A stretch of 64,000 nt of DNA from Planctomycetia bacterium (GTDB lineage Bacteria; Planctomycetota; Planctomycetia; Pirellulales; Thermoguttaceae): assembly GCA_030527185.1 (NCBI GenBank), contig JAUNBF010000004.1, positions 30,347 through 94,346 on the forward strand, written 5' to 3'. This document shows positions 10,083 through 61,613 of the stretch, piece by piece. The first letter of the stretch is position 1. Each line of letters begins with the position of its first letter. The notes under the pieces were generated by a model. That model did no database searches and was not told the origin of the DNA. It worked only from the letters and a program-made list of their open reading frames with translations. The position numbers were made by a program, and so were the translations under genes.

Positions 10083-10092
10083 CCCCCCCCCC
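10083..10092 (+). repeat. C10 homopolymer tract between ATG 10056 and the PEP-CTERM ORF frame
   Basis: Ten consecutive C. The ATG-10056 frame stops at 10098-10100, and the main ORF is one frame off. Confidence 0.95.
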
Positions 10093-10149: not shown

Positions 10150-12321
10150 ATGCCAACTTTTGCCATGGAGCAAAACCCGTACGATGATCGGGAGCCGTAT
10201 GCCTCCTATACCGATGGTGGTGAATTTTCTCATCAGTCTCTGATAAATAGCCAGTTTTACTACAAAACGTCGGAAGACGCGACTTCGGGCATGTTGCGTG
10301 TGGGGGAGAATCGCGATAATGGGATTGCCGCTCTTTATCAGACCGCCGGAACGGTCCATGCCAACTCCAATTATCCGATTATTGGTCAGAGTACCAATGC
10401 TTCTGCCACAGGGCTACACTTCAGTCTGTATCAACTGAGCGGTTCTACCAAAGCATACATCGTGGGAAGTGGTGGTGCAAATGGACTTTATATGGCTACT
10501 GCCGACTACAATGACGCCGTACTGGAAATCCAGGAAAACTCTCCCGACACGGTTCTCTTTTGCTCGGATATTCGTTTAGGCTCATCCAGTGGCTATTCTT
10601 CCAATGCTCATGTTCAACAAGCTTCCGGTACGATTTACGCAACGACCATAACGACTCCGACTGCCGCAAAAGCAGGGTACGAATATGGTTATACCCTTTC
10701 CGACGGGAATCTTTTTGCAGGTGCCATCACGAATACTCCAATGACCTTTATCGGTGGTACGATGGCGTTTGAAACGTCCAACACCTCCCTGACGAACGAT
10801 GGCGGAACGCTGGAGATTTACGGGAATCTTGCCTCGGCACTCCAGAAGGAAACTTATACCTATGCCCTTTTTGCTGCGGGAAATACGCCAGGGTATACGA
10901 CGTATGGCACCTCCACAGTGACGGGAGATTACGTTCAAAAGAACGGAACGTTGGCATTGGATTACCATGCCGGGACACCAACAAATTCCGACAAACTGGC
11001 CGCCACGAACATAGCGCTGGAGGGGGGAAAGGTTCTGGTTCGTTCCAGCCTTTACGCCAATCATACCGGCTTGGAATCGTTTGACGGACTGGATGGAAAC
11101 ATCACGTCGAGTGCGACGGTACAAGCCTCCATGAGCGGATGGAAATGGAAACTGGACACCACGACCGGCACCCTTTCGACCGACATGAAGACGTGGAATC
11201 CCACCACCCAAACCACCATTGCGGACGGCGATTACCTGACGTTGTATTCCACATCAAAATTTGCCGGAAGTTTCAACATGACGGGGGGGTATTTGACAGG
11301 CCGATTTTATATGGGTACCGACACCGCGGATTTTACGATGAATCAATCCGGTGGTACCACCCTATTGAATCAGACAAGCTACTGGGCGGTGCTTTTGGAA
11401 TCCGGTACAAGTGGTCGACAGGCCATTTGGAATCTTTCCAACGATGCCAAATTCTACGTTTTCGATAACCAGTCCTACAACGGCGAAGATCGACGTATGA
11501 ATATCGGAAAAGGTTATCTTGGGAAAATCACCATTGCGGATAACGTCGTTTTTCATGCCGATGCTGTGGGGTTGGGAGTAAATAATGGAAGCAGTTACTA
11601 CGGACGTGGCATTGTCGAACAGTCTGGCGGTGAGGCCTATTATCATCTACTCCGAATGTACACCCGAAAGGAATCTGTAGGTACGTCCGACCCCTCTTCC
11701 TATACCCTTACCGATGGGAGACTCGTGGTTCGCAAACTGGAATCTTACGCTCCCGACACTTCCGCCACGATTCAACCTCTTTTCCAACTCCAGGGTGGCA
11801 CCGCAACGATTGTGGAGAGTAACATGTCTCTGGTGAACGATGGCTCCACCATTCAAATCCAATCGGTTGGCGATATTCTGGACGATTTTCGTTACCTCAA
11901 CGACGGTGACGAGACGACCGATCGTCCTCTTGGGTTCACGAACATCGGCACCATGGATGTAACCGGTACATTCACGCAAAACAGGGGTATCATCGAATTT
12001 GAAATAGACAGTGAAACACTTTTGGACACGCTCAATGCGTCTGAGGGGATTTTCCTCAATGGCGGCGACCTGTTCGTGGAGTACCTTGGGGAGGAAATTC
12101 TGGCGGAAGGTACCACATTCGCCATTTTTGGAGAAAGTCCCTCCGTCACGTTTGGCGAGTTGTTCAATACTCTCGTTTCCAATCGTGAGGGAACGCAATT
12201 TTGGCAATTGAACACTTGGGGAGCAACCTACGTTGGAAGTGAAATAGCCGTCCCCGAACCTGCATCGTGGCTTCTTCTCGTTCTGGGGCTGGGATACTTT
12301 CTGAAGCGACGTTGGGCATGA
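10150..12321 (+). CDS. PEP-CTERM sorting-domain surface protein with beta-strand-repeat body; 5' end frameshifted relative to the likely true start at 10056
   Basis: The C-terminus VPEPASWLLLVLGLGYFLKRRWA is a PEP-CTERM motif plus TM plus basic tail. T/G/S/N-rich repeats. ATG 10150 gives no signal peptide. The in-frame upstream extension encodes GISGIFWGVFLSLMPTFA but has no start codon. Confidence 0.8.
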   Translation: MPTFAMEQNPYDDREPYASYTDGGEFSHQSLINSQFYYKTSEDATSGMLRVGENRDNGIAALYQTAGTVHANSNYPIIGQSTNASATGLHFSLYQLSGSTKAYIVGSGGANGLYMATADYNDAVLEIQENSPDTVLFCSDIRLGSSSGYSSNAHVQQASGTIYATTITTPTAAKAGYEYGYTLSDGNLFAGAITNTPMTFIGGTMAFETSNTSLTNDGGTLEIYGNLASALQKETYTYALFAAGNTPGYTTYGTSTVTGDYVQKNGTLALDYHAGTPTNSDKLAATNIALEGGKVLVRSSLYANHTGLESFDGLDGNITSSATVQASMSGWKWKLDTTTGTLSTDMKTWNPTTQTTIADGDYLTLYSTSKFAGSFNMTGGYLTGRFYMGTDTADFTMNQSGGTTLLNQTSYWAVLLESGTSGRQAIWNLSNDAKFYVFDNQSYNGEDRRMNIGKGYLGKITIADNVVFHADAVGLGVNNGSSYYGRGIVEQSGGEAYYHLLRMYTRKESVGTSDPSSYTLTDGRLVVRKLESYAPDTSATIQPLFQLQGGTATIVESNMSLVNDGSTIQIQSVGDILDDFRYLNDGDETTDRPLGFTNIGTMDVTGTFTQNRGIIEFEIDSETLLDTLNASEGIFLNGGDLFVEYLGEEILAEGTTFAIFGESPSVTFGELFNTLVSNREGTQFWQLNTWGATYVGSEIAVPEPASWLLLVLGLGYFLKRRWA

Positions 12322-12332
12322 GGGGAAATACC

Positions 12333-12719
12333 ATGAAAAGAAAACCTGTACCAGTACTGTTTCTACTTATCTTTGCCGTGGGTTGCGGACAGAAAACCGG
12401 CACGGTTTCCGGCACGGTTTTGTGGGAGGGAAAACCTGTGGAAAATGGGGTGATCGAGTTTGTGCCGCTGGATGATAAAACGATTCCAGCGACCCCCGCC
12501 CAAATTATCGACGGAAAATATCAGGCCACTGTCCCGCTCGGACGGATGCAAGTGCAATTGACCTGTTATGCGGACGAAGGGAGTTATTATCCTTCAGGAC
12601 CGACAGGACCGAAAATCAAGCCGTTACGGAACGTGATTCCCCCGGAGTGGAATGTGGAGTCCAAACTGGAATATACGGTTTTGAAGGGAGAGCAAAAATA
12701 TGATTATCCGAAAAAATAA
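12333..12719 (+). CDS. Small lipoprotein, carboxypeptidase-regulatory-like beta-sandwich candidate
   Basis: ATG 12333 gives [20 protein letters not shown] (lipobox FAVGC). [19 protein letters not shown] is typical of the small partner proteins of DUF1559 genes. Overlaps the next gene by 20 nt. Confidence 0.7.
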
Positions 12720-13659
12720 TGCTTTCACGTTGGTGGAACTCCTGGTTGTGATTGCTATTATCGGGATGCTGGTGGGGCTACTCCTTCCCGCGGTACAACA
12801 GGCACGGGCGGCTGCGCGTCGGATGCAGTGCGCGAATAAAATGCGTCAATATGGTCTCGCTTTTTTGAACTACGAAACCCAAAATCAGAAATTTCCGTGG
12901 GGGACGCAGCGAGGCGATGGAAAGACCAATCCGCCGGACGGTTCGGGGGGCTGGGTTGCGGGAAGCGGAGCCAAAAATCAAATACGTCGTTCGTTTCTCG
13001 TTTGGATTTGGCCTTATTTGGAACTGAACGCGAACTACCAGGAATTCAACTTCGACTACAATCCCGGCAATTGGCAAAACAGCAACAACATGTCCCTATG
13101 TCAACCCGTGGCGATTTACTTTTGCCCGGACGACCGACCGAATGCACTGTGGTCACCGTCGGATGGAACAAAAAGTAGTTATTCCAAAGGGAATTACGTC
13201 GTCAATTTCGGTGAACTCGACCTTTCCAAAAGCAAGCTGAATCTGAACTGCCAACTGAAGAAAGCCCCTTTCGATATTAACCTTCGACGTACCGCAGGTG
13301 AATTTCGCGACGGACTTTCCAACTGCGTATTTCTGTCGGAAGTGCTGATTTCTCCACTCGATTCCGACTACGATATGCGGGGATTGGTCTTTTATGAAGT
13401 CGATGCGGGGGCTCACTTTATGACCAATCAACAACCCAACTCCGGCTGGGATTACCAGATTTGCCAGGGGGAACCCATTCCCGGTGTCACCTGTTCAGGA
13501 GGTACTCCTTATCGGATTCCTGCCCGAAGCAATCACTCCAATGGGGTGAATGCCGTACGTGGTGACGGTTCCGTATCGTTTGTCAGTAACTCCATTGACC
13601 TCGACGTTTGGAAAAGTCTGGGAACCATCTGTGAGGGAGATATTGTCAGCGAATTTTAG
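12700..13659 (+). CDS. DUF1559 / H-X9-DG protein with prepilin-type N-terminal methylation motif
   Basis: N-terminus [31 protein letters not shown]-terminal [12 protein letters not shown] (H-X9-DG). Confidence 0.9.
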
Positions 13660-58914: not shown

Positions 58915-60309
58915 TCACGCGGTTCGTGGCCGTCGCACTCGAAACACTGCGAGGAATCCCATAATAAGAAGACACCAGGTGGATGGTTCCGGGAGTTCGT
59001 TTTCTTTTCCGATAACGAATCGACCTTCCGTACTTACTACCTGAAAACCGTTCGGAAGGCTCAGATTTCCCAGAATTTCCAGATTCTCCGCAGTGAAAAT
59101 CTCGAATTGGGAGCCATATGCGGAACTCCACGGCTGTACGAAGGAAACTTGCAGCGTCCCGTCAATATTTACCTCGTCAAAGTGGATTACGTCGGGATTC
59201 TCAAAGTCATAGAGAATATCCAGCCAGCCATCGGAAGTGGTGTTCAACTCACCACCGGTAGTATCGAAAAAATCAATCGTCTGCCGGGCACCGACATTCA
59301 ACACACCGTTCGTAAGCAGTGTTAGCTGGTCGAACGCGTCGCCAGGATTCGTGGCGTTGATATTCAACGTGCCATAAGCGCGAACCTGCGTCGCCGTGGT
59401 ACTGTCGATGGAACCACCCTCAAAATTCACGACGGCAGGATACTCCGCGGTTGCCGCGTTACCTCCGACAAGGAGTGCGTCCAGCGTCACTGCCGTTCCA
59501 GAAAAATTCGTCGTCCCGGAATATGCCGCCACTTTTTGGGTCGTCGTAAGATTACCGCCGTTGAGGTTCACTTCGCCATTTCCGACGCGGAGGTGATCAT
59601 TCATGGAGACCACCCCACTGGTGAGTGTGAAAGTTCCTTTTCCCGTGGTACGTTTGTTGGAGTTATCGCAACCGACATAAATGGCACCGGAATTCAACGT
59701 GCCGTTGTCGATGAAGACATACCCATCACCGGAAAGACTGGCAACCCGAACCGCGTTGGTCACGAAAACCGCTCCGCCCTGGCTGATATTCAATGTGCCG
59801 GAAATACCGGAGTGGGTGAGATTACTGCCGAGCCTCAAACCGTCGTTGCCCTGGATTGTCAGGACGGAGTTGGTGCCTGTGACCGTCAGGGTACCTTTTC
59901 CACCCGAGGCATATCCTACGTCTGCCTTGCCAGCAACCGTTACGGCAGAGCCATTTTGAATCGTAAGCGTCCCATTACCATACATTCCAATCCAGAATGA
60001 GGAGTCCGCGTTTATTGTGGCGGCATCCACGACGACCTGGCTGGTATTCTTGTTGTAACGGCCAACCCCAAGGCCTTTGAGGGTAAATATGCCATTGCGG
60101 ATGGTGTGCGTGGAGGTTGTACTTCCCCCCGTGTCCACTTCTTCACCCTGCAACCAGATTTGAGTATTGGTACCGGGTGTGTACGTACTTGTCGTGTTCC
60201 AGGTTCCTCCGGTACTCTCCTCGCCATTTTTTAAATAATGGTGTGTCTGCCCATGAGCTGAAAATGCCAGAAAAAGCATGGTCGCAAAAATTGCCATTCG
60301 TTTGTTCAT
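58915..60309 (-). CDS. PEP-CTERM sorting-domain surface protein with autotransporter-like beta-strand repeats
   Basis: Signal peptide MNKRMAIFATMLFLAFSAHG. Repeated G.LT..G / GTL.I units. C-terminus LPEPSTWCLLIMGFLAVFRVRRPR. Confidence 0.85.
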   Translation of the reverse strand: MNKRMAIFATMLFLAFSAHGQTHHYLKNGEESTGGTWNTTSTYTPGTNTQIWLQGEEVDTGGSTTSTHTIRNGIFTLKGLGVGRYNKNTSQVVVDAATINADSSFWIGMYGNGTLTIQNGSAVTVAGKADVGYASGGKGTLTVTGTNSVLTIQGNDGLRLGSNLTHSGISGTLNISQGGAVFVTNAVRVASLSGDGYVFIDNGTLNSGAIYVGCDNSNKRTTGKGTFTLTSGVVSMNDHLRVGNGEVNLNGGNLTTTQKVAAYSGTTNFSGTAVTLDALLVGGNAATAEYPAVVNFEGGSIDSTTATQVRAYGTLNINATNPGDAFDQLTLLTNGVLNVGARQTIDFFDTTGGELNTTSDGWLDILYDFENPDVIHFDEVNIDGTLQVSFVQPWSSAYGSQFEIFTAENLEILGNLSLPNGFQVVSTEGRFVIGKENELPEPSTWCLLIMGFLAVFRVRRPRTA

Positions 60310-60341: not shown

Positions 60342-61292
60342 TTAGGGAGAAAGAGTTGCGACTTGTCCATCGTTCCGACTTCCCAAGTAGCGATAAACCG
60401 TTTCCCAATCAATGTCATACGCGACGCGTCGCACTGAACCATCGCATAAGGCCATGCCAAACGATCCGGCATGACAACTTCCAAAATTACGATAAACGTA
60501 AAGCCCCGAACGATCCTGACGCGGCTGATACAGTTCCCGATTGTCCCCTGATTGAATCGTATAAGTGAAACGATGCACGTCCGTATCGAATCCCTGAAAC
60601 GCGCTCTGATTATCACAAGCGTCGGTGCCCGTTTCGTAATTCTCTGGCATGAGGTACTTCTCACCAAGTAAAAAAGTATTGGAAGTACCGTCTCGAATTT
60701 CACCGATGGAAACCTGGCTGCGGGAATAGATTACCCCGTCAAAATCCGAATCCTGAAATTGCCATAAAGAACTGTGAGAATCGGAATACTTCGCCAAATC
60801 ACCCGCAGAAGAGGGTTTGTCGACCGCCAAACGTCCCAGAGAACCACTGTTGGCCGCGTAATCCGTTTTCAGACAACCTTCTTTGGAAATATCGTCGCAG
60901 TTGACGTATTTACAGACATGGGAATAGCTTTTCACCGCACGACGGGAAGGGCATATCAGGAAAGACAACACTTCCTTTTCCCGGTGGGCGGCCCCCGTCT
61001 TTTGTTCTGGAGTCACCGTATCGGGCTGACCGTCCGCACCGAGCTGATACAACGCTCCCTGTTCCATGTACGGGAGAATTCCATAAATCCATCCGCCGGT
61101 CTGTTTTTTCCCCTGTCCCCGATCGGGATCGCCCGTCCAATAATAATTCCATCCGCCACTGGGAAAGGCACGACACGAAGATTCGCAATTCAGACAGGCT
61201 ATCGCCATTTGACGTAAGTTGTTTTGGCACCGCATGTTCCGTGCCGCTTCACGTGCCTGTTGTACTGCCGGAAGAAGAAGTCCGACAAGCAT
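60342..61292 (-). CDS. DUF1559 / H-X9-DG protein; N-terminal prepilin motif and true start (ATG 61405) separated by a frameshift at a G11 tract
   Basis: The track ORF begins at an internal Met of ..[27 protein letters not shown]. The in-frame upstream extension encodes [15 protein letters not shown] but has no start codon. C-terminal HAGSFGMALCDG (H-X9-DG). Confidence 0.8.
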   Translation of the reverse strand: MLVGLLLPAVQQAREAARNMRCQNNLRQMAIACLNCESSCRAFPSGGWNYYWTGDPDRGQGKKQTGGWIYGILPYMEQGALYQLGADGQPDTVTPEQKTGAAHREKEVLSFLICPSRRAVKSYSHVCKYVNCDDISKEGCLKTDYAANSGSLGRLAVDKPSSAGDLAKYSDSHSSLWQFQDSDFDGVIYSRSQVSIGEIRDGTSNTFLLGEKYLMPENYETGTDACDNQSAFQGFDTDVHRFTYTIQSGDNRELYQPRQDRSGLYVYRNFGSCHAGSFGMALCDGSVRRVAYDIDWETVYRYLGSRNDGQVATLSP

Positions 61293-61371
61293 ACCGATAA
61301 TGGCAATGACGACCAGAAGTTCGACAAGAGTAAATCCTACGCGATTTTCGTGAAGAAAACACGCATTTTTA

Positions 61372-61382
61372 CCCCCCCCCCC
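61372..61382 (-). repeat. G11 (plus-strand C11) homopolymer tract just after ATG 61405
   Basis: Eleven consecutive C on the plus strand. The leader frame MVWKSVKLGGGVKMRVFFTKIA* stops at 61339-61337. Confidence 0.95.
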
Positions 61383-61482
61383 AACTTAACAGATTTCCAG
61401 ACCATTTTTACTCCTTTGCAAACAATGTCTATCGACGAAATTTTTTTGGTTCAAGGGAACCATTCCCCCAAACCATCATTCT

Positions 61483-61511
61483 ATCATAGTCCACATCCCC
61501 GGAAATGTCAA
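61483..61511 (-). promoter_or_regulatory. Consensus promoter TTGACA-17-TATGAT for the DUF1559/PEP-CTERM pair
   Basis: Minus strand: TTGACA (61511-61506), 17-nt spacer, TATGAT (61488-61483). SD AAGGAG (61416-61411) lies 5 nt before ATG 61405. Confidence 0.6.
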
Positions 61512-61613
61512 GTAAAAAACCTTCAATTTTATCCAGTGAATAAAATCAAAGGTTGTATTCCATGGTTGCGTCGGAAAATTGGGGAGTGGAATCAGGAGAT
61601 TTTCCCCCATGAC

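Follow-up and report, generated by a model that had tools for sequence, protein, structure and literature searches.

A run of eleven guanines (G11) near the start of a DUF1559 gene in the window, by which we mean the whole 64,000-nucleotide stretch of DNA that was analysed, is probably a hypermutable contingency tract. It lies on the minus strand in the region encoding the cleaved leader of a pilin-like protein, and the sequence data suggest that it would serve as a slippage-driven on/off switch of this gene. Tracts combining poly-G with a prepilin motif were found to recur at more than 200 loci in related gut Planctomycetota, with more than 240 tracts over two scans. At the level of sequence comparison, the recurrence of the tract in the family, the mixed frame states of the genes, the intact bodies of the OFF genes and the differences in tract length between orthologues are what a contingency locus typically shows in such comparisons, and they support slipped-strand phase variation, as had been suggested in a sequence-only reading of this DNA.

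The features of the locus are collected in Table 1. Direct reading and scanning of the sequence confirmed the promoter, the Shine-Dalgarno sequence, the ATG and the G11 tract at the coordinates proposed in that reading, together with the 22-codon frame of the OFF state. Following ATG 61405, the codons GTC TGG AAA TCT GTT AAG TTG lead into G11, which begins 21 nt past the ATG and is an uninterrupted homopolymer, as is typical of contingency loci, whose tracts measure at least about 8–9 nt. The G/C runs across the 64-kb window comprise 17 of length 6, seven of length 7 and none of length 8, followed by single runs of 10 and 11, both of which sit a few codons past a start codon with a good RBS and promoter. 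The runs of 10 and 11 are isolated outliers in 64 kb, and the G11 tract is not a chance occurrence. The hairpin upstream is located between the promoter and a break of synteny at 61588, and it may insulate the operon against upstream transcription.

Table 1. Sequence features of the G11 locus and of the second long tract (positions are those of the window)
Feature	Position	Strand	Basis
Sigma-70-like promoter, TTGACA-17-TATGAT	61483..61511	minus	Promoter scan; 11/12 positions match, near-consensus
Hairpin with 17-bp stem, followed by a T run	61518..61554	minus	Terminator-like scan; abuts the -35 box upstream
Shine-Dalgarno sequence AAGGAG	61411..61416	minus	Read directly; 5 nt ahead of the ATG
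Leader start codon ATG	61403..61405	minus	Read from sequence, with frame analysis
G11 homopolymer, proposed slippage site, encoding the leader Gly run	61372..61382	minus	Sequence; also in Logan contig L001
Conserved 5′ flank TCTGTTAAGTT	61383..61393	minus	Same as the family motif (A)ATGTTAAANT
22-codon ORF of the assembled (OFF) state, MVWKSVKLGGGVKMRVFFTKIA, ending at TAG 61339–61337	61337..61405	minus	ORF analysis
ON-frame remainder of the prepilin leader, KNACFLHENRVG, up to Gly(-1)	61335..61371	minus	In silico repair
Prepilin cleavage/methylation motif and N-terminal hydrophobic helix	61263..61334	minus	Profile and PDB matches
Mature DUF1559 body, 330 open codons	60342..61334	minus	PF07596 match
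Next gene downstream, encoding a secreted protein of 464 aa that has T5SS/PEP-CTERM-associated repeats and a PEP-CTERM-like tail	58915..60309	minus	Profile search
C10 sister tract after ATG 10056 of the 723-aa PEP-CTERM gene (10150–12321)	10083..10092	plus	In silico repair

The tract was replaced in silico by 8 to 14 G, and the resulting ORFs were measured. The results showed that G9 and G12 gave ORFs of 353 aa and 354 aa, respectively, and that G8, G10, G11, G13 and G14 gave ORFs of only 11–23 aa; as in known contingency loci, a length change of one unit takes the reading frame from full-length to truncated or back. The repaired protein reads MVWKSVKLGGG(G)KNACFLHENRVG, with cleavage after ...NRVG and the DUF1559 body behind it, which bears out the earlier claim that G12 or G9 joins a complete prepilin N-terminus to the DUF1559 ORF. 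At G11, the body is in frame 3, which carries a TAA stop codon at 61388–61386, and the body frame between this stop and Met 61292 contains no ATG, GTG, TTG, CTG or ATN codon. The assembled gene is therefore OFF by any criterion, so that the OFF state proposed earlier was confirmed by both frame and rare-start analysis. A second assembler gave the same tract length: the Logan assembly of SRR24915838, which probably shares reads with the window assembly, is 100% identical over 10,155 bp and likewise has G11. The NCBI annotation covers 60342–61292 alone (316 aa, MDO4582782.1), starting at an internal Met, and the Logan gene call for the same gene also begins at an internal Met and gives 241 aa, a practical warning that annotation pipelines silently shorten such genes. 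Several of the homologues P0001, P0039, P0046, P0056 and P0089 begin within the FTLVELLVV helix, and out-of-frame tracts elsewhere may have produced the same artefact in them.

DUF1559 proteins are reported to have undergone a huge expansion in Planctomycetota and to form the most expanded and least understood family of this phylum. Profile matches identify the product of the repaired gene as a DUF1559 prepilin-type protein. It matched PF07596 over model positions 1–266 of 268 (E = 3e-42, 145.9 bits, cut-off 23.3), and the prepilin motif G/FTLxE (the slash marks the cleavage site) with its hydrophobic helix was present solely in the repaired frame, where TIGR02532 scored 20.3 bits (cut-off 16.3) and PF07963 scored 20.1 bits, just under its cut-off of 21.2. 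In a comparison with PDB structures, only the N-terminal helix matched (type IV pilins, geopilin and GspG), and residue 1 of the mature pilins aligned with F25, suggesting that residues 1–24, including the Gly run, form a leader for removal by prepilin peptidase. By eye, the C-terminal CHAGSFGMALCDG agrees with H-X9-DG; the profile search gave TIGR04294 for the paralogue at 12700–13659 and not for this protein.

The tail of the downstream protein reads ...LPEPSTWCLLIMGFLAVFRVRRPRTA and scored below the cut-offs of both PF07589 (18.6, cut-off 20.7) and NF035944 (21.5, cut-off 35), and its TIGR04393 repeat scored 29.3, above the cut-off of 23. A gap of 32 nt separates the DUF1559 gene from this gene, and the scan found no promoter or terminator within it; on this arrangement the two genes are probably co-transcribed. 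In relatives, the gene after the DUF1559 gene mostly encodes a 135–175-aa lipoprotein, and among the 62 scorable loci (61 relatives and the window) a PEP-CTERM-like gene follows in the window alone. A general DUF1559/PEP-CTERM module was rejected on this count of 1/62. The earlier view of a tract in the first gene of such a module applies to the G11 locus but does not extend to the lipoprotein-associated loci elsewhere.

The neighbourhood of the locus was compared with that of its relatives. Logan contig L002 (SRR22588136) is 94.5% identical to the window across argC-argJ, and synteny is lost at window position 61588 (L002 position 2759), beyond which the contig carries other genes (encoding a 390-aa protein and an epimerase) and lacks the whole two-gene module. 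The promoter falls just inside this break. A break of synteny just outside the promoter in a strain of 94.5% identity suggests that the two-gene DUF1559/PEP-CTERM module is accessory and strain-specific. No orthologue of the exact locus was found in the collections searched, and a search of JGI metagenomes with the exact flanks and a variable tract gave 0 matches. The nearest homologue, P0002, is 64% identical and lies in a different, non-syntenic neighbourhood; P0123, considered as a representative of the neighbour's cluster, was rejected as an unrelated clustering artefact. The nearest homologues (50–64% identity) have short leaders such as MKRG without a tract, and the mature protein of the window shares no more than about 30% identity with the bodies at other poly-G loci, which together imply that the leader cassette is found on very divergent DUF1559 subfamilies. 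A separate observation concerns P0006, P0011, P0030, P0061, P0062, P0074, P0101 and P0115, which have long, mutually similar N-terminal extensions (GGQKRSACLPTPLATGGSRSVPPRTRGREARS, sometimes twice) that look as if a repeated intergenic DNA element, lying ahead of the DUF1559 genes of related MAGs, had been translated.

Poly-G tracts were searched for in one genome per GTDB species with a pattern of G9, a gap of 9–39 nt and the back-translated motif F-T-L-[VI]-E-L-L-V-V-I, and in JGI metagenomes with the flank motif described below as an additional requirement. Both scans demanded G9 or longer, and the data were short-read MAGs or metagenome contigs. The genome scan yielded at least 119 tracts in at least 117 stretches. 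Among the matches listed, about 6 were pilin genes of other phyla and the rest belonged to Planctomycetota MAGs from animal guts, namely Thermoguttaceae of goat, roe-deer and water-deer hindgut and rumen and termite-gut 'Planctomycetaceae'. The S1R_St and S4R_St MAGs are also among the matches listed, and their accession series includes the MAG encoding P0002. Single genomes held several tracts, with at least 17 in Kf353_bin130, at least 9 in S4R_St_16 and at least 6 in S1R_St_28. Tract lengths among the matches listed in the genome scan were 9 (16 tracts), 10 (13), 11 (23), 12 (43), 13 (15), 14 (4), 15 (4) and 17 (1), and this peaked distribution with a mode of 12 argues against chance decay. 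The JGI metagenomes yielded at least 122 tracts with the same length profile; among the matches listed, nearly all of them came from a handful of samples, one of which, Ga0099364, is also the source of termite-gut MAGs found in the genome scan. DUF1559 genes with G12 and the same flank, located 101–143 nt upstream of the FTL motif, were also seen in L031 (6639), L065 (2723) and L069 (7240); their leaders are too long for the scan pattern, and they stand outside the counts.

The frame state of each gene was determined by following the body frame back from the F codon until an in-frame start or stop was reached. No in-frame ATG, GTG or TTG was present in 38 of 110 tract-bearing genes (about 35%), compared with 1 of 25 tract-less prepilin genes at the same loci (4%); the Fisher test gave p = 0.0013, computed on the tract-bearing count of 39/113 from the matches listed in the genome scan. 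The sole tract-less exception has G12 about 100 nt further upstream. In the JGI metagenome set, 18 of 103 genes among the matches listed were OFF. At least 290 open codons were retained by 40 of 41 OFF genes (median 363) and by 119 of 124 ON genes, and the OFF allele of the window, in the manner of a contingency locus, likewise has its 330-codon body intact.

Tract length differed between close relatives. In three pairs of orthologues, each drawn from two species representatives, the tract is the only place of difference: L022 with G11 and L106 with G13 (95.8% flank identity over 600 nt), L046 with G11 and L076 with G12 (93.8%), and L004 with G11 and L100 with G13 (92.8–93.0%). Among flank pairs of 90–97% identity, all from family loci other than the window locus, 10 of 14 differed in tract length, and no difference was seen at 97% identity or above, where the pairs number only three (3/3 equal), which gives no sign of very fast switching. 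Codon usage in the tract differs from that in the rest of the gene: GGG accounts for 14% of the Gly codons in the mature parts of tract genes, and the leader Gly run is all GGG. With GGG so infrequent elsewhere, a run of 3–5 GGG codons is unlike a mere poly-Gly linker.

Alignment of the tracts revealed shared flanks, 5′-(A)ATGTTAAA-N-T on one side and YAA on the other, for which the window has TCTGTTAAGTT and TAAAAA. The sequence-only reading had overlooked this conserved motif and the frame-shifted second start that it gives most relatives. In L008 (S1R_St_28) even the spacing equals that of the window, i.e., AAAGGAG, 5 nt, ATG, 12 nt, GTTAAGTT, Gn and TAAA. The genome set had been collected without selection for the flank, and among the matches listed 62 of its 113 loci read x-V-[K/N]-[L/M/I] against the tract. 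The codon before Val ended in T in 60 of these 62 loci, with an AAT:AAC ratio of 40:1 against a background of 47:53, and GTT was the Val codon in 54 of the 62, where the background is 39%. The idea of a motif at the level of the peptide alone (N-V-K) was rejected, since the third-position bias goes far beyond codon usage. Owing to the nucleotide conservation of T-GTT-AAA, frame 2 always has NTG (ATG 46, GTG 6, CTG 6, TTG 2) followed by TTA AAN, and frame 3 of the conserved flank reads TGT TAA. The flank of the window accordingly reads S-V-K-L in frame 1, CTG TTA AG. in frame 2 and TGT TAA, a stop, in frame 3. In the 178 motif loci among the matches listed, the body was in frame 1 in 92, in frame 2 in 66 (41 with a usable ATG) and in the stop frame 3 in 20; in some genes, such as L100 (MKSPKMLKWGGGGKKNRLG/FT), an upstream ATG plainly puts frame 2 in the ON state. 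A reasonable reading of these sequences is that the flank would give two ON frames and one OFF frame. With CTG as its frame 2 codon, the window probably has one good ON frame, the stop frame being that at G11. The flank is similar to an extended -10 element (TGnTAnnnT) as well, and the constraint on it may come from either a three-frame design or such an element.

In the 1.4 Mb of DNA analysed, nearly every G run of 9 or longer has the flank. On the minus strand of L059, at about 3213 in plus-strand coordinates, G11 with the same flank (CTGTTAAACT) is located near the start of a non-DUF1559 gene (MKANAAFTRLSFSRALLNWGGG...), suggesting that the cassette is not strictly tied to one family. We tentatively propose, at a confidence just short of even, that gut Planctomycetota of Thermoguttaceae-like lineages from ruminants and termites have a large phasome in which a single portable leader cassette is reused. 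This cassette would lie in the cleaved prepilin leader of many highly divergent DUF1559 paralogues, and now and then in secreted proteins of other kinds, and would give each gene two ON frames and one OFF frame.

The C10 tract at 10083–10092 was analysed in the same way. C9 or C12 links ATG 10056 to the 723-aa PEP-CTERM ORF and adds a signal-peptide-like N-terminus. The two tracts had been taken as two cases of the same architecture; this stands with respect to the control of the frame by C9/C12, but at the first locus it is the PEP-CTERM gene itself, and no DUF1559 gene, that contains the C10 tract. In its minus-strand reading, the sister tract is TGTTAAAACA-G10-TAAAATGC and resembles the DUF1559 locus: ctaTGTTAAAAca-G10-TAAAATGCAATG (TGTTAAAACA-G10-TAAAATGCAATG) stands against tcTGTTAAGtt-G11-TAAAAATGCGTG (TGTTAAGTT-G11-TAAAAATGCGTG), which suggests a copy of the cassette antisense to its PEP-CTERM gene. 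Further along, a 150-aa lipoprotein-like ORF at 12267–12719 overlaps the start of the tract-less DUF1559 gene at 12700–13659 (leader MIIRKNNA); relatives show the reverse order, with the DUF1559 gene first and the small lipoprotein after it.

In the mechanism that we propose for the G11 locus, replication slippage would add G's to the tract or remove them. At G9, G12 or G15, translation from ATG 61405 would read M-V-W-K-S-V-K-L-(Gly)n-K...R-V-G/F-T-L-V-E, and this precursor could be cleaved by prepilin peptidase and then exported; as the Gly run would be lost with the cleaved leader, the length of the tract would cost the mature protein nothing. At G11, the body frame would meet the TAA of the flank and the ATG frame would end after 22 codons, so that no functional protein would be made, and the co-transcribed PEP-CTERM gene would probably be lowered by polarity. 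The window locus would represent one copy of a cassette, NTG-TTA-AAN-N followed by poly-G and YAA, that is present in many DUF1559 paralogues, and independent switching of each copy would produce mixed surface repertoires. Slippage as the cause, its reversibility and rate, the polarity, the surface exposure of the product and any benefit of switching are all inferred.

The OFF state of the window might instead be a short-read homopolymer artefact, the true tract being G12 and the gene intact. Homopolymers of 11 or longer are error-prone, the window is a MAG contig, the Logan contig is probably from the same run and G12 is the commonest length in the family among the matches listed; but two different assemblers give G11, and over many independent projects and assemblers the out-of-frame state is tied to tracts (38/110 versus 1/25), which makes a miscount unlikely. 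If the tract were truly G12, it would remain an uninterrupted, slip-prone GGG run, so a miscount would alter the present state and not the nature of the element. Long homopolymers are known to cause transcriptional slippage, and the gene might be expressed without any change of the DNA, through slippage of RNA polymerase or ribosomal frameshifting, with the tract tuning the level of expression and not switching it. This would agree with the finding of all three frame states in otherwise intact genes. However, programmed recoding sites keep a fixed out-of-frame arrangement in orthologues, whereas here most copies are in frame and the lengths range from 9 to 17; no slippery heptamer or stimulatory structure was found from the tract to the stop, Rfam gave only a sub-threshold PYLIS_5 (23 bits, threshold 60), and the stop frame is depleted (20/178 among the matches listed), as expected if the DNA frame matters. 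A programmed -1/+1 frameshift was rejected for want of a slippery site and of a consistently out-of-frame family, and we regard expression without DNA change in general as quite unlikely to replace switching, though transcriptional slippage or recoding may add leakiness atop it.

The gene might also be dead, a recent frameshift having turned it into a pseudogene of an accessory island that cannot regain its function; the frame broken as assembled and the absence of the module from the 94.5%-identical strain, with synteny ending at 61588, speak for this. The tract is the sole lesion, however, with the 330-codon body, promoter and RBS intact; OFF genes of the family are as intact as ON genes, and gut lineages of termites and ruminants have kept uninterrupted G runs, with a mode of 12, which neutral decay would break up. 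A pseudogene is thus very unlikely. The tract could also be imagined as a 5′-UTR element serving as the RBS for a start at ATG 61366, given that GGGGTAAAAATG mimics GGAGTAAAAATG and the two RBS contexts are alike in sequence. Frame analysis refuted this start: ATG 61366 shares its frame with ATG 61405, out of the body frame, and yields only MRVFFTKIA-stop (9 codons). An in-frame start between tract and motif occurs in only 3 of 119 loci among the matches listed, and a role in the 5′-UTR can hardly be entertained. Slippage-driven switching of the DUF1559 gene through its leader tract thus remains our preferred reading.

The mechanism proposed for the locus is of the known pilC/opa type. In Neisseria gonorrhoeae, pilC carries a homo-G tract in its signal-peptide coding region and undergoes RecA-independent on/off switching by frameshift (PMC5354566). 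The likeness to the window locus lies in a poly-G within the coding region of an N-terminal export signal that is cleaved off a pilus-associated protein. The sequences are not homologous, and the protein here, for which switching is predicted, is itself pilin-like, with a prepilin leader instead of a Sec signal peptide and many paralogues instead of two. The multi-copy opa surface proteins of Neisseria have CTCTT repeats in the leader-peptide region of each copy, and a cell expresses none or several of them (PMC5354566). Gut Planctomycetota likewise have many mixed-state copies per genome, but the opa repeat is a pentamer and not a homopolymer, and the Opa proteins are outer-membrane beta-barrels without homology to those described here, in another phylum and host. 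In the phasomes of the gut-associated Campylobacter and Helicobacter, G/C homopolymers of about 8–13 nt are reported to lie in surface-related reading frames, with mixed ON/OFF states in genomes (PMC6321876, PMC8355987); those tracts are spread over many unrelated families and positions, in contrast to the one family, one position and conserved flank found here, and there is no homology. Orsi et al. (2010) proposed that prokaryotes in general inactivate genes by way of homopolymeric tracts in the coding sequence, and this work is, going by its abstract, a statistical survey that does not concern this family, cassette or lineage (PMC2831843).

New here are the phylum and the protein family, together with the scale of the occurrence and a flank that differs in its three frames. 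The open-access literature searched contained nothing linking Planctomycetes, Thermoguttaceae or DUF1559 to phase variation or homopolymer tracts, consistent with the earlier remark that no description of such variation in Planctomycetota was known; the same search returned no report for the DUF1559 family. Our study would add a phylum, and gut commensals not yet in culture, to the known range of homopolymer contingency loci. The maintenance of a frame-controlling poly-G in the leader of dozens of gut DUF1559 genes suggests fluctuating selection, for example by phages, host immunity or changing substrates. If the cassette phasome is real, it would amount to combinatorial variation of DUF1559 proteins. 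The tracts would also offer a handle on the biology of this family, through a comparison of ON and OFF subpopulations.
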